This document shows, one piece after another, positions 2-61,431 of a DNA stretch of 64,000 bases; positions within the stretch are counted from its first letter, which is position 1; every line of letters starts with the position of its first letter. Source of the DNA: Anaerolineae bacterium (GTDB lineage: Bacteria; Chloroflexota; Anaerolineae; Anaerolineales; UBA4823); assembly GCA_003327455.1 (NCBI GenBank), contig QOQU01000002.1:231963-295962 (forward strand), given 5' to 3'. The translations under genes were made by a program, and so were the position numbers. Below the pieces are notes generated by a model. The model was not told the DNA's origin and did no database searches. It saw only the letters and a list, made by a program, of their open reading frames with translations.

Positions 2-3000
2 GCCTTGACCATATTCACCCGTTTTTATCTGCTGGGTGTACGAGTGATGAGCCATGATGAAACCTCTCATGTATATTTTTCCTGGCTGCTATCGCAAGGG
101 AAAGGCTATCGTCATGATCCTATCACGCATGGACCGCTTCAGTTTCACTTAATCGCCTTGAGTTATTTCCTGTTTGGCGATAATGACTTCACCGCGCGGG
201 TACCGGCTGCAACCTTGAGCGTTTTAACAGTAGCCTTCCTCTGGTATTATCGCAAAATTCTGGGAAGGTTCGGATACCTTGTTGGCGCCTTTTTGTTGCT
301 GATCTCCCCCTATATCCTTTATTATGGGCGGTATGCTCGAAACGAAGCCCTGATCGGCTTATTTGCAGTTCTTCTATGGTGGGGAATGATAAATTATCTC
401 ACTACTCGACAACCGCGATATCTGCTCTGGGTAACGATAGCTTCGGTTTTACATTTCATCTCCAAAGAGACCGCTTTTATCTATACCGCCCAGGCATTGA
501 TATTTCTAGCTATTTATATCTTATCTGCTTTATCAAAGAAGCCCTGGCGCATCGAGTCCTACCGTCCGCTTTTCTTGAGCATCCTGATTGCGTCATTAAT
601 ACTTCTTGCCCTGGCAATAGGGATAACCCTGATTGAGAGAAATCCTCAGCCTACCTCCCAACAGCTCAATCTTCCATCCGAGCAGGAAACATCGCTTCCC
701 ACCTTTTCAACAGCCTCTATCGCCATGATAGCGGTTGCCATCCTGGGCATCCTGGCGTGTATTTATATCGTCATCCGAGGATATTCCTGGTCCGCACTTC
801 TCAATGAACCCTCATTTGATCTGGCAATTCTTATAGGTACCCAGGTTTTGCCGATGCTTGCCCCATTCCCGGTAAAGTTTCTGGGGCGCGATCCAATTGA
901 CTACTCTTCAACTCAAAACATTTTGTTCGTAGCTAGTTTTGTAGTTCTTTTGAGCCTATTCGCCATTGGCATAGGACTGGCCTGGCGTCCGAAAATCTGG
1001 TTGATTAACACGACTGTTTTTTATTCTATCTTCGTCCTTTTTTATTCTACGGTTTTCACGAATGGTTTTGGAATCTTTACTGGGTTGGTTGGTTCGCTGG
1101 GATACTGGCTAGATCAACATGGTGTCAACCGTGGAAGCCAACCCTGGTATTATTACGGCCTGATCCAAATTCCCATTTACGAATATCTCCCCCTGTTGGG
1201 AGTATTTTTTGCCATCCTCTATGTGCTCTGGAAAAACCACCGCCAGTCAACAATTGTTAACAAAGCGACTCATGAATCAGAACAACCAGAGCGTTCCATC
1301 CAGACCCTAAGGCAAGGATTTGCCCCTCACGATCGACTTACTTTTATTTTCTTTCTATATTGGTCAATCACCAGTCTGATTGCTTTCTCAATAGCAGGCG
1401 AAAAAATGCCCTGGCTCACCTTTCACATCACTTTACCTATGATTCTGCTATCTGCTTGGGCAATCGGTAAAGTGCTGGAAGCCATTCGATGGAAATCTTT
1501 CATCCGCCGTAAAGGGTGGCTGCTTGCTCTGGTCTTTGGTGTGTTTTTGATTTCGATCTCCATGACCTTTATCCTGGCACTTGGGGCTACCCCTCCATTT
1601 CAGGGAAAGGAACTCAACCAACTCCAGGCAACCACATCTTTTTTAAGCGCCCTGTTATTCACCCTTCTCTCCGGAGGCTATCTATACCATGCCTTCCGCA
1701 CCTGGCAACCGCTTGAAGCCCTGAAGGTTTGCATTGTCACCGTTTTCATCATCCTGGCTATCCTCACCGTGCATACAAGTGTTTTAGCCTCTTTTGTCAA
1801 TTATGACAACGCTACCGAATATCTGGTCTATGCTCATTCTGCCCGAGGACCGAAGGATATACTCGAACAAATTGAAGAAATCTCTCGGCGCACAACGGGC
1901 GGGCTTGCCATTCAGGTCGCCTATGATGACGAAACCACTTATCCTTACTGGTGGTATCTTCGCAACTATCCTAACCAGCAATATTATGGAGATACGCCAA
2001 CGCGCGAGCTACGTAACGTGCCTATTATTCTGGTTGGTGAAAAGAACTACGGAAAGATCGAAGCGGTTGTAGGACAGGCATATTATCGTTTTGACTATAT
2101 CCGTTTATGGTGGCCCAATCAGGATTATTTTGATCTCAACTGGCAAAGGATTCGCGAAGCTATCAGCAGTCCAGAGATGCGCCAGGCACTCTTTGAAATC
2201 TGGTTAAACAGAGATTACACCCGCTATGGCCAACTGACCGGCAAAGACATGAGCCTGACAAACTGGTATCCTTCCAGTCGGATGAGACTCTACATTCGCA
2301 AAGACATCGTCGCTTCTCTGTGGAATTACGGGAGTATGCCAGCGGAAGTGAACATACCGGCTGACCCATATGAAGGCAAACAGGCTAAAGTGCAGCCCGA
2401 TAAAATTATCGGAGGCAGCGGTACCGAACCGGGCCGCTTCCAACGCCCGCGTGATCTTGCCGTCGCTCCTGATGGAACTCTCTACATTGTCGACTCGGAA
2501 AATCAACGCATTCAACATCTGGATGCAAATGGTAATGTTCTCCATATCTGGGGGTCTTTTGGCGATGCAACAACCGGAGAAGCTCCTGGCGGTACCTTCA
2601 ATCAACCCTGGGGCATTGCAGTCGATCAGGATGGTTTCGTGTATGTGGCTGACACATGGAATCACCGCATACAAAAATTTACTGCAGATGGACAATTTAT
2701 CACCCAATGGGGATATTTCGGACAGGCCGAATCCCCAACTGCTTTCTGGGGTCCACGAGATATTGCCATCGATTCTCAAAACCGACTCTTCATCACCGAC
2801 ACTGGCAATAAACGAATAGTTGTTTTCGACAATGAAGGCAACTATCTCGCCTCATTCGGTCACGCGGGTCTTCTACCAGGCGAGTTTGACGAGCCGGTTG
2901 GTCTGGCTTTCGGTCCGGATGGTCGGCTCTATGTCGCCGATACCTGGAATCAACGCATCCAGGTATTCTCAATTGACGCACAATTAAATTTCATCTACCA

Positions 3001-3274
3001 AAACAGTTGGGAAATCTTTGGCTGGTATGGTCAATCCCTGGACAACAAGCCTTATCTGGCTGTTGATGCTCAAAATTATGTCTATTGCACCGATCCAGAG
3101 GGATTTCGTATCCTCCAATTCAACGCGAATGGAGATTTTGTGCAGTACTGGGGAGAGGCTGGACAGGGGCCTGGTAGTTTTTCACTACCTGCATCCCTCG
3201 CAATCGATCCCAGTGGTGGAATCTGGGTAACCGATGCTGGTAGTGGTCAAATTCTACATTTTTCAATCCCATAA
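2..3274 (+). CDS. Polytopic GT-C-type (TIGR03663 / ArnT-PMT-like) putative glycosyltransferase fused to a C-terminal NHL-repeat beta-propeller; 5' end probably cut by window edge
   Basis: The ORF is open to the window edge: codon 2-4 precedes the TTG that the ORF track uses as M. The first ~780 aa contain many hydrophobic helices. The motif MSHDETSH...HGPLQFH is typical of this GT-C family. Residues ~795-1089 carry repeated NHL units (RPRDLAVAPDGTLYIVDSENQRIQHL, QPWGIAVDQDGFVYVADTWNHRIQKF, EPVGLAFGPDGRLYVADTWNQRIQVF). Confidence 0.75.
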   Translation, partial: ALTIFTRFYLLGVRVMSHDETSHVYFSWLLSQGKGYRHDPITHGPLQFHLIALSYFLFGDNDFTARVPAATLSVLTVAFLWYYRKILGRFGYLVGAFLLLISPYILYYGRYARNEALIGLFAVLLWWGMINYLTTRQPRYLLWVTIASVLHFISKETAFIYTAQALIFLAIYILSALSKKPWRIESYRPLFLSILIASLILLALAIGITLIERNPQPTSQQLNLPSEQETSLPTFSTASIAMIAVAILGILACIYIVIRGYSWSALLNEPSFDLAILIGTQVLPMLAPFPVKFLGRDPIDYSSTQNILFVASFVVLLSLFAIGIGLAWRPKIWLINTTVFYSIFVLFYSTVFTNGFGIFTGLVGSLGYWLDQHGVNRGSQPWYYYGLIQIPIYEYLPLLGVFFAILYVLWKNHRQSTIVNKATHESEQPERSIQTLRQGFAPHDRLTFIFFLYWSITSLIAFSIAGEKMPWLTFHITLPMILLSAWAIGKVLEAIRWKSFIRRKGWLLALVFGVFLISISMTFILALGATPPFQGKELNQLQATTSFLSALLFTLLSGGYLYHAFRTWQPLEALKVCIVTVFIILAILTVHTSVLASFVNYDNATEYLVYAHSARGPKDILEQIEEISRRTTGGLAIQVAYDDETTYPYWWYLRNYPNQQYYGDTPTRELRNVPIILVGEKNYGKIEAVVGQAYYRFDYIRLWWPNQDYFDLNWQRIREAISSPEMRQALFEIWLNRDYTRYGQLTGKDMSLTNWYPSSRMRLYIRKDIVASLWNYGSMPAEVNIPADPYEGKQAKVQPDKIIGGSGTEPGRFQRPRDLAVAPDGTLYIVDSENQRIQHLDANGNVLHIWGSFGDATTGEAPGGTFNQPWGIAVDQDGFVYVADTWNHRIQKFTADGQFITQWGYFGQAESPTAFWGPRDIAIDSQNRLFITDTGNKRIVVFDNEGNYLASFGHAGLLPGEFDEPVGLAFGPDGRLYVADTWNQRIQVFSIDAQLNFIYQNSWEIFGWYGQSLDNKPYLAVDAQNYVYCTDPEGFRILQFNANGDFVQYWGEAGQGPGSFSLPASLAIDPSGGIWVTDAGSGQILHFSIP

Positions 3275-3336
3275 AGCTATAATATAACTACAAGGGAGTT
3301 CATCGGAAATATTATGACCCAAACGGAGAAATCTTG

Positions 3337-4479
3337 ATGAAACTACATGAATACCAATCTAAACAAATCTTTTCACGTTACGGGATACCCATCCCTAAAG
3401 GCCGTGTCGCATCAACAGCAAACGAAGTAAAACAAATCGCTGAGGAGCTTGGCGGCAAGGTGGTGGTAAAGTCCCAGGTTCTCGTCGGTGGGCGCGGGAA
3501 AGCTGGCGGTATTCGCCTGGCAAAGAATCCAACTGAAGCAGAAGAAGTTGCCACACAAATCCTTTCAATGGAGATCAAAGGATTACCTGTCCGCAAAGTT
3601 TTAGTTGATGAAGCAGCCAATATCAGCAGTGAAATTTATTTGGGAATCACCAATGATCGCGCTGCCCGGAAACCAGTTATCATGGCTTCCTCAGCAGGGG
3701 GAGTAGATATCGAAGAGGTAGCTCAAGTCTCCCCCGAGAAAATCATTAAAGTTCACATCGACCCTTTGCTGGGTTTGCGGGATTATCAAGCCCGTGATGT
3801 TGCAGCCGGCATTGATCTTGCCCGCGAACACTGGAAAGCTTTTATCTCAATCACTCATGGGCTCTGGAAGGTTTATACAGAATGCGATGCAACGCTCGCC
3901 GAAATCAACCCCTTAGTGATTACTGCTGAGGGTCAGCTTCTTGCGCTGGATGGCAAAATGATCATTGACGATAACGCCCTCTTCCGTCACCCAGAGTTTT
4001 CAGAGATGCGTGACCTGGATGCTGAAGCTCCATCAGAAATCGAAGCCAGAAAATATGGATTGTCTTACATAAAGCTGGATGGTGATATTGGGTGTATGGT
4101 TAATGGCGCCGGTTTAGCGATGACCACCATGGACATCATCAAATTGTTTGGCGGCAATCCGGCAAATTTTCTAGATATCGGCGGCGGTGCAAACGCAGAC
4201 AAAGTAGCTGCTGCCTTTCGGATTATTCTTAGCGATCCTAACGTAAAAGCAGTTCTTTTAAATGTATTTGGCGGCATCACCCGCTGCGATGAAGTAGCCC
4301 ATGGCATTGTCGCAGCCATGCAGGAAGTCAAACCCAAAGTCCCAATGGTGGTTCGCTTGGTGGGAACAAACGCAGAAGAAGGACGTGAAATCCTGGCAAA
4401 TGCCCAAATGATCACGGCCGAAACCCTCGTTGACGCTGCACAAAAAGCTGTTGCCGCATCGAAAGGAGAACTTAAATGA
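3337..4479 (+). CDS. sucC: Succinate--CoA ligase (ADP-forming) beta subunit
   Basis: The N-terminus [18 protein letters not shown] and the ATP-grasp layout match SucC. A GGAGA Shine-Dalgarno lies 7 nt before ATG 3337; the track's TTG at 3334 is less likely. The stop overlaps the sucD start (ATGA). Confidence 0.95.
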
Positions 4480-5354
4480 GCATATTGATTGACAAAAACA
4501 CCCGTCTGCTTGTTCAAGGAATCACGGGAAATGAAGGTATGTTTCACACCCGTCAGATGGTCACCTACGGCACGAATGTCGTCGCTGGCGTCACCCCAGG
4601 CAAAGGCGGCGAGTGGGTGTTAGATGGCAAAATCCCTGTATTTGACTCTGTACGAATAGCTGTAGAAGCTACTGGCGCCAATACCAGTGTCATATTTGTC
4701 CCAGCTAGGTTTGCCTCAGATGCAATTTTCGAAGCAGCAGATGCGGGAATCCCATTAATTGTGTGTATCACTGAAGGTATCCCCGTCCAAGACATGATGT
4801 GCGTACGCAACTACCTCGATCAGAAAAAATGTCGCCTTATCGGCCCAAACTGCCCTGGCTTGCTCTCCCCCGGTCAATCAAAAGTCGGTATCATCCCCGG
4901 CGATATCTCCATACCAGGAAATGTAGGTATTGTTTCCCGTTCGGGGACACTCACCTATGAGGTACTCTATGCACTCAAGCTACGCCGTATTGGCGTGAGT
5001 ACTTGCGTTGGCATTGGTGGCGATCCCATTAATGGCACAAATTTCATTGATGTCTTGACGATGTTTGAGGACGATCCTCATACGGATCAGGTCGTACTGA
5101 TTGGCGAAATTGGAGGGAGCGATGAAGAAAAAGCGGCCGAATTTATCGCCAGCCGCATGACCAAACCGGTTGTAGGATTCATTGCGGGTCAAACCGCCCC
5201 ACCGGGAAAAAGAATGGGACACGCTGGAGCCATTATCGAAGGTGGGTCAGGCTTAGCCAGGGACAAAATCCGCGCCCTACAGGATGCTGGGGTGAAAGTC
5301 GCCCGCCATCCTGAAGAAATTCCTGACTTACTGAGTAAAATTTCGATGGATTGA
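4476..5354 (+). CDS. sucD: Succinate--CoA ligase alpha subunit
   Basis: Contains the motifs [19 protein letters not shown] and the phosphohistidine loop GHAGAII. It is translationally coupled to sucC. Confidence 0.95.
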
Positions 5355-17983: not shown

Positions 17984-18023
17984 GTTCAGCCTCCTCATTC
18001 AATTAGATTTAACTACTTGAAAT

Positions 18024-18353
18024 AAAAAACGCGCTCATCCCACGATGGGGACGAACGCGCTGTCCGCGGTGCCACCCCGGTTAGGCAGCCTCTTAATTAA
18101 AAATCCCGTTGGTGTTGCAACGGGAAAAAACAGGCCAGCCTCACTCATTACGGGTACAGGCCAATCATGACCGATACCCTTTCCCATGATAACGGCGGTT
18201 GCGCCGGCATAGGCTACTTGGGACGACCCTTTCGCCTTGCACTCAGAGGCCCATTCAGCTACCTCGTGCTTGCAAGGATTCCACCTTCCCTTGCTCTCTG
18301 AAAAGCCGTAAGCAGCTTACTTTTCCTCGTCAACGTTTTCGGGTAGTGAATTG
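18024..18353 (-). promoter_or_regulatory. T-box riboswitch leader with Trp (UGG) specifier and intrinsic terminator
   Basis: Read on the minus strand:
- Stem I carries the elements CAGAGAGC...GGTGGAA.
- The specifier loop GAA-UGG-G (codon at 18251-18253) is closed by GAGG/CCUC.
- The conserved T-box sequence GGGGTGGCACCGCGG is at 18064-18078.
- A 12-bp terminator stem plus U6 spans 18024-18059, about 40 nt before the trpB2 ATG. Confidence 0.85.
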
Positions 18354-56675: not shown

Positions 56676-59453
56676 TCAAACAACAATGTTTACCAAACGT
56701 CCGCGCACATAAATGACCTGTTTTGGTAAATCTCCGCTCAAGTGCTTCTGGACGATCGGACTTTCTAAAGCTGCCTGTTTTGCTTCTTCTTCGCTGACCG
56801 AAGCCGGTAATTCCAGCCGGTCACGCACTTTGCCATTGATCTGCACGACGAGGGTGATCATTTCTTCTTTTGCCGCTTCTTCATCAACCTGTGGCCAGGG
56901 TTGGACATGGATCGAGTAGGGTTTACCCAACAAATTCCATAGTTCTTCAGCAATATGAGGTGTTGCTGGAGCCATTAATCTCAAGTAAATATCTACCGCT
57001 TCTTCCCATTCAGGCGTTCCAAATGCGCCAGCTTCTTTGGCATTTACCATTCCGTTGAGCAATTCCATCAAGGAAGAAATAACCGTGTTAAACTCAAATT
57101 GCTCGTAATCTCGGGTGACCGAGCGGATAGTCTGGTGCACTTTGCGGCGCAAGGTTCTGAGAGCTTCCGGGGATGGTTGCCTGGTTCCTTTCGGTTCTTC
57201 CAGTATGGTTGCCCAAACCTTTCGTAACCATCGGGCAGTCCCTTCTATACCGCTGGAACTCCATGGAGCTCCCATATCCCAGCGGGCAAAGAACATCAAA
57301 TACGCTCGCACCGTGTCCGCACCATATTTTTCGACCAGTTCATCCGGAGCAATCACATTTCCTCGACTTTTAGACATCTTTTCTGAATCCTCCCCTAAAA
57401 TGACGCCTTGATTGCGTAGTTGGATCATCGGTTCAGGCCCCTTTGTGATGCCCATGTCTCGACAGGCCTTATGGAAAAAGCGAGTATAGATTAAGTGCAT
57501 TGTCGCATGTTCAATGCCACCTGTATAGGTATCCACAGGCATCCAGTAATCATACTCCTGCGGATCAAAAGGCCCTTGATCATACTTTGGGCTGAGGTAT
57601 CGCAAATGGTACCAGGAAGAACACATAAAGGTATCCATCGTGTCCGTTTCTCGTTCAGCCATCGATCCACAATTCGGACAGGTGGTAAAACGCCAGGTAG
57701 GATGCAGTTTCAATGGGCTTTCACCCGTTGGCAACCACTCAACATCGTCAGGTAACAAGACCGGAAGTTGGTCTTCAGGCACCGGCACTACACCACACTG
57801 CTGGCAGTAGATGATTGGTATCGGTGCCCCCCAATATCGTTGGCGAGAAATTAACCAATCACGTAATTTGTAATTAACTTTTGCCTGTCCAAGTCCTTTC
57901 TCTTCCAACCATTGGATGACCTGCTTAATGGCAACCTCTCCCTTTGTGCCGCTAAATTCTCCCGAATGAATCATATCTCCATATTGATCGTGATAGAGTA
58001 CATCGCGATAGTAAGGAATATCCCACAGATACTCCATGGTGGTTCGGTAGCGTTGGGTATTGGCATCCAACTTTTGAATTCGATTGAGGATTTCGCGATC
58101 CGCCTGGATAGTTGACAATGAAAGTAATTGATCAGAAAAGATAAATAACCATTCTGAACCCACAATCTCAACCCAACCATTCCCTTGTAACGCTTGTTGA
58201 GCTTTGTGAACAAATTCCTGGACTTGATCTTTACCGAGAACAACCGCGAGAGTCTCCTTGTCCTCTTCTTGAACAAGGCCTTTTGATCGTATGTATTCAA
58301 TAAATGCGGCGGAGACAAAAGATTTTCTAATTATCGACTTTCGTTGCGCATTGTGCTTCTCAATGACCGGTATGATCGGTAAACCGAACTTATGCGCAAA
58401 CTCAAAATCGCGTTCGTCGTGGGCCGGCACCGCCATAATTGCGCCGCTGCCATAGGTCATCAGGACGTAATCCGCAATCCAGATCGGTATCTTTTCATTG
58501 TTGACCGGATTGATTGCATAACCGCCTGTAAAGACTCCGGTTTTTTCCTTTCCTACCGCTTCACGCTGGATATCGCTTTGCCGTAAAGTAAAGGCAACAT
58601 ACTCCGCCACAGCCGCCTGTTGTTCTGAGGTCGTGATTTTTTCAACCAAGGGGTGTTCAGGCGCCAACACCATAAAAGTTGCTCCCCATAAAGTGTCTGG
58701 GCGAGTGGTGAAAACCTCTAAATCATCCCCCTGTTCAGTCCTGAATCGCACCATTGCCCCTTCTGAACGACCAATCCAATTGGTTTGAAGCAGTCTTACC
58801 CGTTCTGGCCAGTCTAAATTGGAAAAATCCAATAATTCTTCTGCGTATTTTGTGGTGCGAAAGAACCATTGCTCTAAATTCTTTTTGATGACCGGTGTAC
58901 CGCACCGCTCACAATGACGATCCTCACCCCAGACTTGCTCCCGTGCCAAGGTTGTATTGCATTGTGGACACCAGTCCACTGGTGCCATTTTACGATAGGC
59001 CAGGTCACTCTTAAACAGCTTTATGAAGAACCATTGTGTCCAACGATAGTATTCAGGGTCGGAAGAAATGGCTTCGCGTTCCCAGTCAAACATGGCTCCC
59101 ATGCTGCGCAACTGCTTGCGCATTCTTTCGATATTGGAATAGGTCCATTGTTTAGGATGAATTTTATGTTTGACGGCTGCGTTTTCGGCCGGCAATCCAA
59201 AAGCATCAAATCCCATCGGGAACAAAACATTAAAACCGCGCATTCGCATGTATCGGGCGCGAGCATCCGACGGCGCCATGGCATACCAATGGCCAATATG
59301 CAAGTCTCCAGAGGGGTAAGGAAGCATGGTCAGGGCATAATGCTTAGGTTTTGAATAATCAATTAACGAGCGATATAATCCATCTTTTTCCCATCTGGTT
59401 TGCCATTTGGGTTCAATTTCTGCGGGTTGATAGGGTTTAGGATGTTTCATCAT
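56676..59453 (-). CDS. leuS: Leucine--tRNA ligase (with ~110-aa extra segment after the CP1 editing domain)
   Basis: Contains the HIGH motif (PYPSGDLHIGH), the editing-domain motif TTRPDTLWGATF, AHDERDFEFA, and the KMSKS motif. The 925-aa protein uses a GGAGG Shine-Dalgarno. Confidence 0.95.
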   Translation of the reverse strand: MMKHPKPYQPAEIEPKWQTRWEKDGLYRSLIDYSKPKHYALTMLPYPSGDLHIGHWYAMAPSDARARYMRMRGFNVLFPMGFDAFGLPAENAAVKHKIHPKQWTYSNIERMRKQLRSMGAMFDWEREAISSDPEYYRWTQWFFIKLFKSDLAYRKMAPVDWCPQCNTTLAREQVWGEDRHCERCGTPVIKKNLEQWFFRTTKYAEELLDFSNLDWPERVRLLQTNWIGRSEGAMVRFRTEQGDDLEVFTTRPDTLWGATFMVLAPEHPLVEKITTSEQQAAVAEYVAFTLRQSDIQREAVGKEKTGVFTGGYAINPVNNEKIPIWIADYVLMTYGSGAIMAVPAHDERDFEFAHKFGLPIIPVIEKHNAQRKSIIRKSFVSAAFIEYIRSKGLVQEEDKETLAVVLGKDQVQEFVHKAQQALQGNGWVEIVGSEWLFIFSDQLLSLSTIQADREILNRIQKLDANTQRYRTTMEYLWDIPYYRDVLYHDQYGDMIHSGEFSGTKGEVAIKQVIQWLEEKGLGQAKVNYKLRDWLISRQRYWGAPIPIIYCQQCGVVPVPEDQLPVLLPDDVEWLPTGESPLKLHPTWRFTTCPNCGSMAERETDTMDTFMCSSWYHLRYLSPKYDQGPFDPQEYDYWMPVDTYTGGIEHATMHLIYTRFFHKACRDMGITKGPEPMIQLRNQGVILGEDSEKMSKSRGNVIAPDELVEKYGADTVRAYLMFFARWDMGAPWSSSGIEGTARWLRKVWATILEEPKGTRQPSPEALRTLRRKVHQTIRSVTRDYEQFEFNTVISSLMELLNGMVNAKEAGAFGTPEWEEAVDIYLRLMAPATPHIAEELWNLLGKPYSIHVQPWPQVDEEAAKEEMITLVVQINGKVRDRLELPASVSEEEAKQAALESPIVQKHLSGDLPKQVIYVRGRLVNIVV

Positions 59454-59532
59454 CGCCTCCGTTTTTACAAATTAGACTTGGCACAGCCGTTGCATCTATC
59501 CGTCTGGCATGTCTGGTCATTCTGGAGAGTCT

Positions 59533-60120
59533 ATGAAACCAAATCATCATCAAAGATGGCTGTCCTTCTTCCTACACTTATCACAACAAATCGATTCTCA
59601 AGTCACCTATTCAGGTTCACATAGCGCACAAGTAGCTCAGCTTGCTCGAGATACCGCTCGCAAGTTATCGCTTAGCGACGTTGAAGTGAGAAAGTTATAC
59701 TGGGCTTCGCTTTTCCATGATATTGGAAAAGTAGGCGTTCCGAGTGAGATTTTATCAAAAGAAGGACCTTTGGACGAGAAAGAATGGCAACTCATTCGAC
59801 TCCATCCCATCGTTGGTGCGAATTTTCTTCGATTTTGTGGATCACTATCATCAACATATCCAATCATTCTTTATCATCAAGAAAAGTTTGATGGTTCAGG
59901 ATACCCTTTTGGATTAAAAGGCGAATCAATACCAATCAGCTCACGTATTCTTGCCGTAGTGGATGCATACGATGCAATGACCAACCGAAGGGTCTACCGA
60001 CAACCGCTCAGTCCCAAACAAGCCATTGATGAGCTGTGGAAGCACCGCAATAAACAATTTGATCCGCGCATCGTTGAACAGTTCATCAATCTCCTAAGTG
60101 ATTTATCTTTTTCGATATAG
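59533..60120 (+). CDS. Stand-alone HD-GYP domain protein (putative c-di-GMP phosphodiesterase)
   Basis: Contains LFHDIGKVGVP, RLHPIVG and the HD-GYP signature YHQEKFDGSGYPFGL...AVVDAYDAMTNRRVYR. ATG 59533 follows GGAGAG, and the alternative start is 59509. The gene lies antisense to the leuS leader region. Confidence 0.85.
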   Translation: MKPNHHQRWLSFFLHLSQQIDSQVTYSGSHSAQVAQLARDTARKLSLSDVEVRKLYWASLFHDIGKVGVPSEILSKEGPLDEKEWQLIRLHPIVGANFLRFCGSLSSTYPIILYHQEKFDGSGYPFGLKGESIPISSRILAVVDAYDAMTNRRVYRQPLSPKQAIDELWKHRNKQFDPRIVEQFINLLSDLSFSI

Positions 60121-60130
60121 GCATTAAACG

Positions 60131-60375
60131 AAAACCTCCGTCCCACAGGGACGGAGGCAATCTCCGCGGTGCCACCCTGTTTACCTGCATTTGCAGGTCA
60201 ACTCAAGGGTGATAACGGTACCTCCGGCAACAATTACTTGGATTTCACTGTTGCAGATAGTCTCTTAACCGCAGGCGAGTTCAGCTTTATCGTGTTCCGC
60301 AAACACAATGTCTGGCTCACACCTCTCTCTCCAGACTCGCTGGCGGATAGCCTACTACTCCTGCTTCCTTTTCCA
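60131..60375 (-). promoter_or_regulatory. T-box riboswitch leader with Leu (CUC) specifier and intrinsic terminator
   Basis: Read on the minus strand:
- Stem I carries GGAGAGAGAGGTGTGA (AG bulge and distal loop).
- The specifier loop UGAA-CUC-G (codon at 60277-60279) is closed by GCAGG/CCUGC.
- The T-box sequence AGGGTGGCACCGCGG is at 60164-60178.
- The terminator stem CCTCCGTCCC/GGGACGGAGG (60135-60157) is followed by TTTT. Confidence 0.85.
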
Positions 60376-60388
60376 TTTTTCGATTGTG

Positions 60389-60461
60389 TGGACCCAGTGG
60401 GATTCGAACCCACGACCTTCTCAATGCCATTGAGACGCGCTCCCAACTGCGCTATGGGCCC
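60389..60461 (-). tRNA. tRNA-Ala (anticodon GGC), no encoded CCA
   Basis: The 73-nt cloverleaf reads GGGCCCA-TA-GCGC-AGTTGGGA-GCGC-G-TCTCA-ATGGCAT-TGAGA-AGGTC-GTGGG-TTCGAAT-CCCAC-TGGGTCC-A. The G3:U70 Ala identity pair is present. Confidence 0.92.
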
Positions 60462-60495
60462 ATCTATTTTGGGTCGGTTCTCTTTCCCTTCCCAG

Positions 60496-60568
60496 TGGAC
60501 CTGGAGGGATTCGAACCCTCGACCTCTTCAGTGCGATTGAAGCGCGCTCCCAACTGCGCTACAGGCCC
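60496..60568 (-). tRNA. tRNA-Ala (anticodon CGC), no encoded CCA
   Basis: The 73-nt cloverleaf reads GGGCCTG-TA-GCGC-AGTTGGGA-GCGC-G-CTTCA-ATCGCAC-TGAAG-AGGTC-GAGGG-TTCGAAT-CCCTC-CAGGTCC-A. The G3:U70 pair is present. Confidence 0.92.
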
Positions 60569-60585
60569 TTATCAGGCTATTCCCG

Positions 60586-60614
60586 ATTGTACCTGACCGA
60601 ACGAAAGCTGTCAA
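60586..60614 (-). promoter_or_regulatory. Near-consensus promoter (TTGACA-17-TACAAT) upstream of the tRNA-Ala pair
   Basis: On the minus strand, the -35 is at 60609-60614 and the -10 at 60586-60591. The tRNA 5' end at 60568 lies about 18 nt downstream of the -10. Confidence 0.6.
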
Positions 60615-60621
60615 GAAAAAC

Positions 60622-61431
60622 TTGACTCACAATTCGGCTGAAAAACAGGGATATAATTGCCTTGTGCTGATTAAAGATACACATCCTTTTTACTACCCGG
60701 GCAACCAGATCGCCTGCCTGCTTGTTCATGGTTTCACCAGTTCGCCTAGGGAAATGTCTCTCCTGGGCGAATTTCTCGCTGCCCAAGGCTTCACCGTATT
60801 GGCAATTCGCCTCTTCGCCCATGGCACCCGCTACCAGGATATGCCCCGCGCACGCTGGCAGGACTGGATTGCGAACATCGAGGATGGTTGGTACATTCTG
60901 AACGGGGAAAATCGTCCTCTGGTTCTAATTGGTTTTTCGTTAGGCGGCTCGCTTGCCTTATATTTTGCAGCCCATTTCCCTGTTCAGGCAGTTATCGTAA
61001 TCGCTTCGCCTCATCATCTTCCCAAAGACCCTCGACTTCCCTTCTTAAGACTGATCTCTCCTTTTTTTCCTTATCTCTCCAACTCTAAGCCACCCCTCTG
61101 GTATGATCAGAGCCAACGCCATCGGCACATTCGTTACCCCAATGACTCAACCAGAGCACTGGCAGAACTGAACACCTTTTTCTTCCACCTCCAACAATCC
61201 TTGCCAAGGATCACAGCCCCTGCGCTATTGATCTATTCAATGAACGATCCAACCGTAACGATGACGGAACAGCACATGGAAAAAATTACCGCTGCAATCC
61301 AAAGTCCTATAAAGGAGACGCTTATTTTAGAAAACAGTGGCCATATTTTGCCTTTGGATGCTCAAAGGGGACTGGTCAATCAGGCTTGTCTTGAATTTAT
61401 CCAACGCGTGACCAAACACAATGAATCGTGA
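60622..61431 (+). CDS. Alpha/beta hydrolase (carboxylesterase / lysophospholipase-like)
   Basis: Contains the HGFTSSP oxyanion region, the nucleophile elbow GFSLGG, and a C-terminal GHILP catalytic-His context. The start is uncertain: TTG 60622 or GTG 60664, and a TATAAT at 60652-60657 would favour the latter. Confidence 0.8.
   Translation: MTHNSAEKQGYNCLVLIKDTHPFYYPGNQIACLLVHGFTSSPREMSLLGEFLAAQGFTVLAIRLFAHGTRYQDMPRARWQDWIANIEDGWYILNGENRPLVLIGFSLGGSLALYFAAHFPVQAVIVIASPHHLPKDPRLPFLRLISPFFPYLSNSKPPLWYDQSQRHRHIRYPNDSTRALAELNTFFFHLQQSLPRITAPALLIYSMNDPTVTMTEQHMEKITAAIQSPIKETLILENSGHILPLDAQRGLVNQACLEFIQRVTKHNES

Follow-up and report, generated by a model that had tools for sequence, protein, structure and literature searches.

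A leucine T-box leader parted from leuS by a convergent HD-GYP gene in Anaerolineae: a conserved layout and possible antisense read-through

On the contig QOQU01000002.1 of an Anaerolineae bacterium (GCA_003327455.1), a leucine-specific T-box leader and the leucyl-tRNA synthetase (LeuRS) gene leuS are separated by a gene for a stand-alone HD-GYP domain, which is read from the opposite strand. The stretch of 64,000 nucleotides (nt) that was analysed, positions 231,963-295,962 of the forward strand, is referred to below as the window, its positions serving as coordinates throughout, and the whole analysis is a comparison of sequences. The gene leuS (56676-59453, minus strand) encodes 925 amino acids with the editing, catalytic and anticodon-binding Pfam domains of LeuRS, and a Shine-Dalgarno sequence GGAGG stands 2-5 nt ahead of its tandem ATG ATG. 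The T-box leader is located on the same strand at 60144-60377, and its intrinsic terminator (60125-60158) lies 677 nt before the leuS ATG at 59453; leuS is the next minus-strand gene, and both this and the distance agree with the original prediction. The gap is taken up by the HD-GYP gene (59533-60120, plus strand; 195 amino acids), whose stop codon is 4 nt from the end of the terminator U-tract on the opposite strand, while two tRNA-Ala genes and a sigma-70-type promoter precede the T-box. The layout recurs in related bacteria, and an antiterminated transcript may run antisense through the whole HD-GYP gene before it reaches leuS.

The comparison was based on two scans. The LeuRS scan, with one genome per species, gave 80 leuS loci (L001-L080), of which 79 belong to Anaerolineae or other Chloroflexota and one, from Moraniibacteriota (L071), is only remotely related, with 41% identity; the LeuRS orthologues are 60-92% identical to that of the window, the closest being L058 (92%), L056 (87%) and L001 (77%). 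The metagenome scan with an HD-GYP alignment gave 70 loci, 42 of them informative, that is, with 43-93% identity and enough sequence past the stop codon. Two groups of loci with the layout are designated below as HD0, where leuS adjoins the HD-GYP gene (n = 9: the window, L058, L081, L082, L056, L083, L084, L001 and L085), and HDX, where leuS lies about 1.7 kb further, behind a gene X (L023 and about 30 contigs).

Among the 80 leuS loci, a gene of the opposite strand in the gap between T-box and leuS was found only in L058, L056, L001 and L023, where it encodes an HD-GYP protein, and in L052, where it encodes a PemK/MazF toxin. In 40 of the 42 informative metagenome loci, the exceptions being L087 and L088, a Leu T-box (core and/or CUC specifier) is convergent to the HD-GYP gene, lies just past its stop codon and is preceded by tRNA-Ala(GGC). 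The synteny proposed for checking in relatives was thus found in both sets, and about 45 loci from two clades have a terminating riboswitch 3' of a convergent gene, the HD-GYP identity going down to 43%. The distant HD-GYP homologues (at most 44% identity; L126, L129-L150) show none of the features of the layout. HD0 and HDX each form a coherent clade in a neighbour-joining LeuRS tree; they do not come out as sister groups in it, but its deep branches are short enough for either one origin or two. The layout is, as far as these comparisons go, old and stable and no chance feature.

The T-box itself was described in the original prediction as complete, with a CUC specifier, the conserved core and a terminator followed by a U-tract, and this was borne out by a match to the full RF00230 model (positions 1-219; 71.9 bits, E = 2.7e-15). 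The specifier loop GAA-CUC-G is located at 60282-60276 (minus), with the codon CUC at 60279-60277 followed by a purine, as in other T-boxes; the core GGUGGCACCGCG, also given as AGGGUGGCACCGCG, is located at 60176-60165 (minus) and includes the discriminator-pairing bulge UGGC at 60174-60171. The terminator consists of the stem 60158-60134 (11 pairs, 8 of them G-C) followed by UUUUCGUUU, with the U-tract at 60133-60125. Since both the antiterminator, in the pairing of the Rfam alignment, and the terminator use CUCCGUCCC, they are mutually exclusive, as in T-boxes generally. The same terminator hairpin is present in L058, L056 and L001, the fold of the leader has z = -4.2 and is better than those of all 200 shuffled sequences, and 26 of the 70 predicted pairs show double compensatory changes in a five-sequence alignment of the clade. 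The Leu T-box is accordingly, by the measure of covariation, under selection within the HD-GYP clade, and an antitermination response to uncharged tRNA-Leu is predicted for the copy of the window.

The leaders of the related leuS loci all align with that of the window and carry GAACUCGCC, and the CUC specifier is kept in 90 of 90 orthologous Leu T-box leaders; the leader is therefore taken as the ancestral leuS T-box of the class. Its assignment to leuS is supported by the comparison, as it is orthologous to leaders that immediately precede leuS in about 30 species among the relatives, and the possibility that the T-box belongs to a different downstream gene, when checked in the relatives, gave way to leuS. 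The proposed check of the leader with RF00230 succeeded by E-value and failed by threshold, as the gathering score is 93 bits; for this reason a gathering-threshold Rfam scan of the whole window overlooked the leader and returned the Trp T-box (18044-18342) and two tRNAs, nothing else, and the Leu T-box was retrieved in the E-value mode with a 1.3-kb search. The low score is a property of the lineage, because every Anaerolineae leuS T-box that was scored (the window, L023, L029, L052, L066, L069 and L094), canonical-looking ones included, falls at 51-74 bits; the HDX leaders L094 and L023 were matched with 53.2 and 51.1 bits, respectively.

The distance to leuS was rightly singled out as unusual: from the T-box core to the leuS ATG it is typically 69-150 nt in the related loci (about 30 of the 80), and the Trp T-box of the same window, brought in for comparison, has its leader end at 18044 and the next open reading frame (ORF) at 17998, 45 nt apart. 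The other long gaps between T-box and leuS contain co-directional genes (ilvE-like, a second leuS paralogue of 830 amino acids, a zinc-ribbon ORF or the methyltransferase fusion X) or are accounted for by an N-terminal extension of LeuRS. Between the terminator and the leuS ATG of the window, no sigma-70-like site was found on the leuS strand at the threshold of a scan with an E. coli-type consensus, by which promoters of Chloroflexota may go undetected. Neither was a positionally conserved site of this kind found in the HD0 and HDX loci, from the terminator to 260 nt beyond the sigma-54 motif described below; a single isolated 9-10/12 match occurs in each of four of the nine HD0 loci, at differing positions, and none in the window. 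No ORF on the leuS strand is conserved in the leader. Two small leuS-sense ORFs were considered as T-box targets (76 amino acids, 59637-59867; 50 amino acids, 59994-60146) and rejected, having no Pfam match and positions unconserved in the clade. A second leuS, gene X and ilvE are all absent from the window.

Upstream of the T-box, the genes of tRNA-Ala(CGC) (60495-60568, minus; Rfam tRNA 66.4 bits) and tRNA-Ala(GGC) (60388-60461, minus; 66.7 bits) were identified by both Rfam and ARAGORN, and the 3' end of the latter is 11 nt before the first position of the T-box model. The distance from the end of tRNA-Ala(GGC) to the GGAGTAGTA S-turn of Stem I is 23-26 nt in all nine HD0 loci and 14-16 nt in 22 of 25 HDX loci, which is too short for a promoter to fit in; in L094 the T-box match begins 2 nt past the tRNA. 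The T-box is thus fused to the tRNA-Ala 3' end and probably lacks a promoter of its own. The sole strong sigma-70-type promoter on the minus strand in 59300-60900 is TTGACA-17-TACAAT (11/12; 60586-60614), upstream of the tRNA-Ala genes. L058, L056 and L001 share both its hexamers and its position, and in nearly all the HD0 and HDX loci that reach that far the form TTGAC[AGT]-17-TACAAT keeps a constant position ahead of the tRNA(s). Because it is the only conserved promoter of this type, the tRNAs, the T-box and leuS look like one unit, of which it is the proposed promoter. These tRNA genes, the fusion to the T-box, the sigma-54-type promoter and the score below the cut-off were not part of the original prediction.

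The order tRNA-Ala(CGC), tRNA-Ala(GGC), T-box and leuS is that of most of the 80 leuS loci and has been conserved throughout the class Anaerolineae. In most of the relatives outside the HD-GYP clades, the tRNA and the T-box are separated by a spacer of 36-190 nt with a stable hairpin, often followed by a T-run, and both HD-GYP clades lack this hairpin. In four relatives, the whole tRNA-Ala(GGC) gene is nested in the Leu T-box leader: in L029 (T-box 3998-4315, tRNA 4184-4256), L066 (4491-4816, tRNA 4675-4748), L069 (4171-4488, tRNA 4354-4425) and L052 (3919-4275, tRNA 4104-4179). The nested tRNA is placed in the loop of the helix that immediately precedes the T-box sequence, with complementary arms on both sides, and full-length T-box matches of 67-74 bits span it; the tRNAs score 64-69 bits where tRNA is the best Rfam match, that of L052 being an ARAGORN call with a tmRNA-clan match of 40.7 bits. 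As the tRNA sits inside the leader, co-transcription of the two is unavoidable in these relatives, and it would be the simplest reading for the window too; processing of the tRNA would split such a leader in two. No precedent for a tRNA gene within a riboswitch was met, no literature search having been aimed at that case, and nothing specific was found in the literature on co-transcription of tRNA and T-box. In L053 (4909-4980), L054 (4909-4980) and L042 (4785-4980), the tRNA-Ala pair stands 70-195 nt before leuS, with neither T-box core nor specifier detectable, so the riboswitch appears to have been lost there and the linkage of tRNA and leuS retained.

The plus-strand gene, which had been called a convincing HD-GYP gene, is confirmed as such by the Pfam match HD_5 (PF13487; E = 1.8e-40) and by the motifs HDIGK and HQEK[FY]DG[ST]GYP, invariant in five orthologues. 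In the second motif (59875-59907, plus), an invariant Gln replaces the second His of the HHE..DG.GYP of 5z7c and 4mcw. The PDB relatives of the protein are V-cGAP3 (5z7c, 5e-32), PmGH (4mcw, 3e-28) and PA4781 (4r8z, 2e-24), the best of which, 5z7c, is a phosphodiesterase of 3'3'-cyclic GMP-AMP (3'3'-cGAMP), and the other two are phosphodiesterases of cyclic di-GMP (c-di-GMP). The protein is a predicted cyclic-dinucleotide phosphodiesterase, for which, given this Gln, both c-di-GMP and 3'3'-cGAMP are candidate substrates. An upstream in-frame ATG at 59509 would give 203 amino acids; however, the orthologue alignment favours the start at 59533, the one used originally, so that the spacer between leuS and the HD-GYP gene is 79 bp rather than the 55 bp (to 59509) given with it, while the accompanying statement, that this gap has no promoter as good as the consensus promoters elsewhere in the window, stands for sigma-70-like sites on the leuS strand at the scan threshold. 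Bellilinea-type loci (L012, L014, L018 and L049) have HD homologues some 3.5 kb upstream, which were considered as displaced orthologues and rejected, since they are the C-terminal domains of larger proteins and hence paralogues.

The spacer contains a block common to all HD0 genomes, which on the HD-GYP strand corresponds to the sigma-54 -24/-12 consensus: TGGCACAGCCGTTGCA at 59479-59494 (plus; TGGCAC-AGCCG-TTGCA), 38 nt before the HD-GYP ATG, with the GG of the -24 and the GC of the -12 element at the exact spacing of TGGCAC-N5-TTGCW. It is the single match of the motif in the 64-kb window, where 0.26 are expected, and the related loci, 1.57 Mb in total, contain just three strict matches, all at orthologous sites; with a relaxed motif, seven matches were obtained against about two expected, five of the seven being these orthologous sites. 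In 43 of 46 informative metagenome loci, a slightly relaxed motif precedes the HD-GYP ATG at a fixed distance of about 40 nt, the flanks upstream of it being unconserved. The HD-GYP gene is thus, on the strength of this pattern, considered to have a conserved sigma-54-type promoter in the 79-bp spacer. A GAFTGA or RpoN-box motif was found nowhere in the 64-kb window and, across all the loci, in one unrelated match (L136); sigma-54 has been reported in "some Chloroflexi" (PMC3162934). The sigma-70-like TTGAAT-17-TATAAT (10/12; 59351-59379, plus), located inside leuS and facing the HD-GYP gene, is probably a chance match, as it was not reported in the scans of L058, L056 and L001, and it was set aside in favour of the conserved sigma-54 element. 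The T-box terminator was also tried as a two-way terminator serving the HD-GYP gene and rejected, because on the plus strand its hairpin is followed by CAAUCUCC, with no U-run. In L087 and L088, the sigma-54/HD-GYP cassette is located elsewhere and has a strong intrinsic terminator of its own, which the cassette adjacent to the T-box lacks.

These elements may be put together as one long minus-strand unit comprising the promoter 60614-60586, tRNA-Ala(CGC), tRNA-Ala(GGC), the Leu T-box, the 677-nt antisense leader (the proposed read-through part being 59454-60124, antisense to the entire HD-GYP gene) and leuS. Transcription would start at the strong tRNA promoter, and the T-box would sense the charging of tRNA-Leu(GAG) through its CUC specifier. 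With charged tRNA-Leu, the polymerase would stop at the terminator 60158-60125, leaving two tRNAs and a short terminated leader as the products; with uncharged tRNA-Leu, the antiterminator would form and the polymerase would cross the non-coding strand of HD-GYP into leuS. The sigma-54-type promoter in the 79-bp spacer would drive transcription of the HD-GYP gene toward the T-box, and read-through under leucine limitation would be expected to oppose its expression by polymerase collision, promoter occlusion or duplex RNA, while activated sigma-54 transcription may reduce the read-through into leuS. As the HD-GYP and leuS units would overlap completely, the arrangement may be called excludon-like.

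Antisense read-through, suggested already in the original prediction, is the most economical model on the comparative evidence, because the T-box appears to be that of leuS, no conserved promoter was found past the terminator and a conserved one was found before the tRNA-Ala genes. We regard it as reasonably probable that antiterminated read-through runs antisense through the HD-GYP gene and feeds leuS, and we infer that the leader would be co-transcribed with the tRNAs, that the read-through would reach leuS and that HD-GYP expression would be affected. That the coupling of tRNA charging to the HD-GYP gene is a function maintained by selection is a tentative suggestion, to be entertained with some doubt. 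The fuller form of it, also rather speculative, is a selected node in which three inputs meet on one stretch of DNA, namely the growth rate (stable-RNA promoter), the charging of tRNA-Leu (T-box) and the signal of an enhancer-binding protein (sigma-54), so that leucine starvation would both induce LeuRS and silence the phosphodiesterase by riboswitch-gated antisense transcription.

Several points weigh against this reading. The leader of the window is below the Rfam gathering cut-off, and its bulge UGGC is expected to mismatch the A73 discriminator of tRNA-Leu, barring a corresponding change in the tRNA; the bulge is UGGU in 79 of the 90 orthologues and UGGC in the window and six of eight HD0 relatives, and no tRNA-Leu gene for a comparison of discriminators was found by ARAGORN in the 64-kb window. 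A weak promoter-like site recurs just past the sigma-54 motif in a few HDX loci (L092, L100, L110 and L111), and a leuS promoter may conceivably lie within the HD-GYP 5' region or the spacer. The 677-nt untranslated leader is a potential target of Rho, and two weak terminator-like hairpins occur inside the leader of L001; in favour of the reading, the leader of the window shows no excess of C over G (G 157, C 132) and no terminator-like hairpin on the leuS strand. Finally, the conservation of the layout could reflect a useful gene trapped in an operon leader rather than selection for coupling.

This last point leads to the alternative that survives best, in which read-through does feed leuS and the overlap has no selected role. 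The cassette would have landed once or twice, being useful in itself and hard to lose without breaking the operon, and its sigma-54 promoter would be silent most of the time, with negligible interference; we hold this to be possible, if somewhat doubtful. The site is evidently permissive, as other insertions are found there in relatives (the toxin gene of L052 and the co-directional genes), and the same cassette occurs away from the T-box in L087 and L088. Moreover, T-boxes are not enriched in the antisense orientation: 107 antisense-oriented against 15,851 sense ones, P = 1.00, were counted in the computational survey of Serrano-Gutierrez and Merino (2023; PMC9943018). However, the junction of the terminator and the HD-GYP stop codon was kept in two clades while the other side varied by the presence or absence of X, and the terminator that the free-standing copy has is missing from the cassette beside the T-box. 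The loss of the tRNA-T-box hairpin in both HD-GYP clades hints, with two clades only, at an adjusted transcriptional flux.

Less probable, and in our estimate unlikely, is an uncoupling of the T-box from leuS, which (or X-leuS in HDX) would have its own unrecognised promoter in the spacer or within the HD-GYP gene towards its 5' end, the T-box being kept for an antisense RNA that controls HD-GYP and for the terminator that closes the tRNA-Ala operon. Such a T-box would be under selection at the 3' end of a convergent gene, as is seen in about 45 loci, and would match the published definition of an antisense-acting riboswitch (PMC9943018); besides, an essential gene pays a price for a long untranslated leader, and the intergenic region of HDX is about 190 bp, AT-rich and in some loci provided with weak promoter-like sites. 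The HD0 clade, however, has no promoter-like site of conserved position, and the 79-bp spacer is mostly occupied by the sigma-54 element, the HD-GYP 5' untranslated region and the leuS Shine-Dalgarno sequence. The preservation of CUC in 90 of 90 leaders is what would be expected if the sensed tRNA still matched the downstream synthetase, and the long co-directional T-box operons of the relatives (with ilvE, the second leuS or X) end in leuS, so a long read-through to leuS is normal in the class.

The third alternative, raised in the original prediction, of a recent insertion that stranded the riboswitch, leaving it decaying or non-functional, could invoke the sub-threshold score and the bulge UGGC instead of UGGU, yet it is rejected as highly improbable, since the low scores are lineage-wide, UGGC stands in the intact leaders of other lineages (L006, L066, L089 and L097), the T-box structure is maintained by the 26 compensatory pairs, the HD-GYP catalytic motifs are kept and the layout is widespread, down to 43% HD-GYP identity.

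T-boxes have been regarded as switches that act strictly in cis, close to the 5' end, on the next gene, and canonical RF00230 leaders of aminoacyl-tRNA synthetase genes are found in Firmicutes, Chloroflexi, Actinobacteria and Deinococcus-Thermus. The present leader shares with them the Stem I specifier loop, the UGGN bulge, the mutually exclusive antiterminator and terminator with a U-run, and the cognate synthetase next on the strand. It differs in that 677 nt instead of tens of nucleotides separate the terminator from the start codon, that the leader encloses an entire convergent gene along with the promoter of that gene, and that it abuts a tRNA gene, has apparently no promoter of its own and scores below the cut-off. 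The joint transcription of tRNA and mRNA from a stable-RNA promoter is known from thrU-tyrU-glyT-thrT-tufB of E. coli, where, as proposed here, one unit comprises tRNA genes followed by a gene for a component of translation; unlike that operon, the present one has a riboswitch between the last tRNA and the mRNA part, and in the four relatives the tRNA is nested in the riboswitch.

Antisense-acting riboswitches, a recognised if sparsely documented class, have been shown experimentally in two cases, neither of which is a T-box: the S-adenosylmethionine (SAM) riboswitch 3' of ubiG-mccBA in Clostridium acetobutylicum and the B12 riboswitch/AspocR of Listeria monocytogenes (PMC9943018). The one T-box example in the text of the same survey is located 3' of a transposase gene (bthu-YBT1518_08170), the copy of close relatives preceding a tryptophan transporter gene, and its supplements contain no Anaerolineae, HD-GYP or leuS case (PMC9943018); in the literature nothing specific was found on the combination of T-box, antisense and leuS. 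As in those cases, a terminating riboswitch here lies 3' of a convergent gene and ligand-dependent read-through would give an antisense transcript. Here, however, the sensor is a T-box, the read-through would probably also be the mRNA of the cognate gene of the riboswitch, and the layout is conserved across dozens of lineages. The excludons of Listeria monocytogenes (Sesto et al. 2013, as cited in PMC9943018 and PMC7154746) are described in these accounts as long mRNAs running antisense through a divergent neighbour, whose expression and their own tend to be mutually exclusive. The long leuS mRNA proposed here from the sequence would, in the same way, run antisense through an oppositely oriented neighbour; different from the excludons as there described would be the gating of the long transcript by a tRNA-sensing riboswitch, its start at a tRNA promoter and the sigma-54 type of the overlapped gene.

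The T-box, the antisense-acting riboswitch and the excludon are, thus, already known kinds, which the locus combines; new are the conservation of the layout across lineages with the cognate synthetase still in line, the sigma-54-type promoter on the overlapped gene and the riboswitch that is fused to a tRNA and probably has no own promoter. Should leucine starvation indeed silence the phosphodiesterase by riboswitch-gated antisense transcription, the locus would provide the first conserved example of a T-box working as an excludon switch and would directly link the aminoacylation status with second-messenger (cyclic-dinucleotide) signalling in an abundant, poorly studied class. Because the layout has been kept in two clades and about 45 loci, the locus is a natural, evolutionarily stable test case for an RNA that would be both a tRNA-gated mRNA leader and an antisense RNA. 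Standard annotation and threshold-based surveys miss the Anaerolineae leuS T-boxes, the tRNA-fused and interrupted ones included, since all those scored fall below the gathering cut-off.

Some further observations concern the genes found around leuS in the relatives. Gene X (L023, 1173-2723; L094, about 2300-3950) consists of an N-terminal domain without a Pfam match fused to a SAM-dependent methyltransferase domain, and in L002 the two parts are encoded by separate neighbouring genes immediately ahead of leuS. The PemK/MazF-type toxin gene of L052 (4304-4672, minus; Pfam 4e-11) represents an independent opposite-strand insertion between the Leu T-box and leuS. Tandem leuS paralogues stand behind one T-box in some relatives, namely a form of 830-900 amino acids and the form of 925 (L006, 1930-4428; L008, 1063-3768; L010, 1296-3785); as compared with the short paralogue, about 105 residues (roughly 386-491) are inserted in LeuRS of the window, with 45-50% identity on either side. 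In L025, L027, L028, L030 and L036, LeuRS carries an N-terminal Lys/Ala-rich extension of about 100 residues with a histone-H1-like look, which explains the apparently long gaps between T-box and leuS in these loci.

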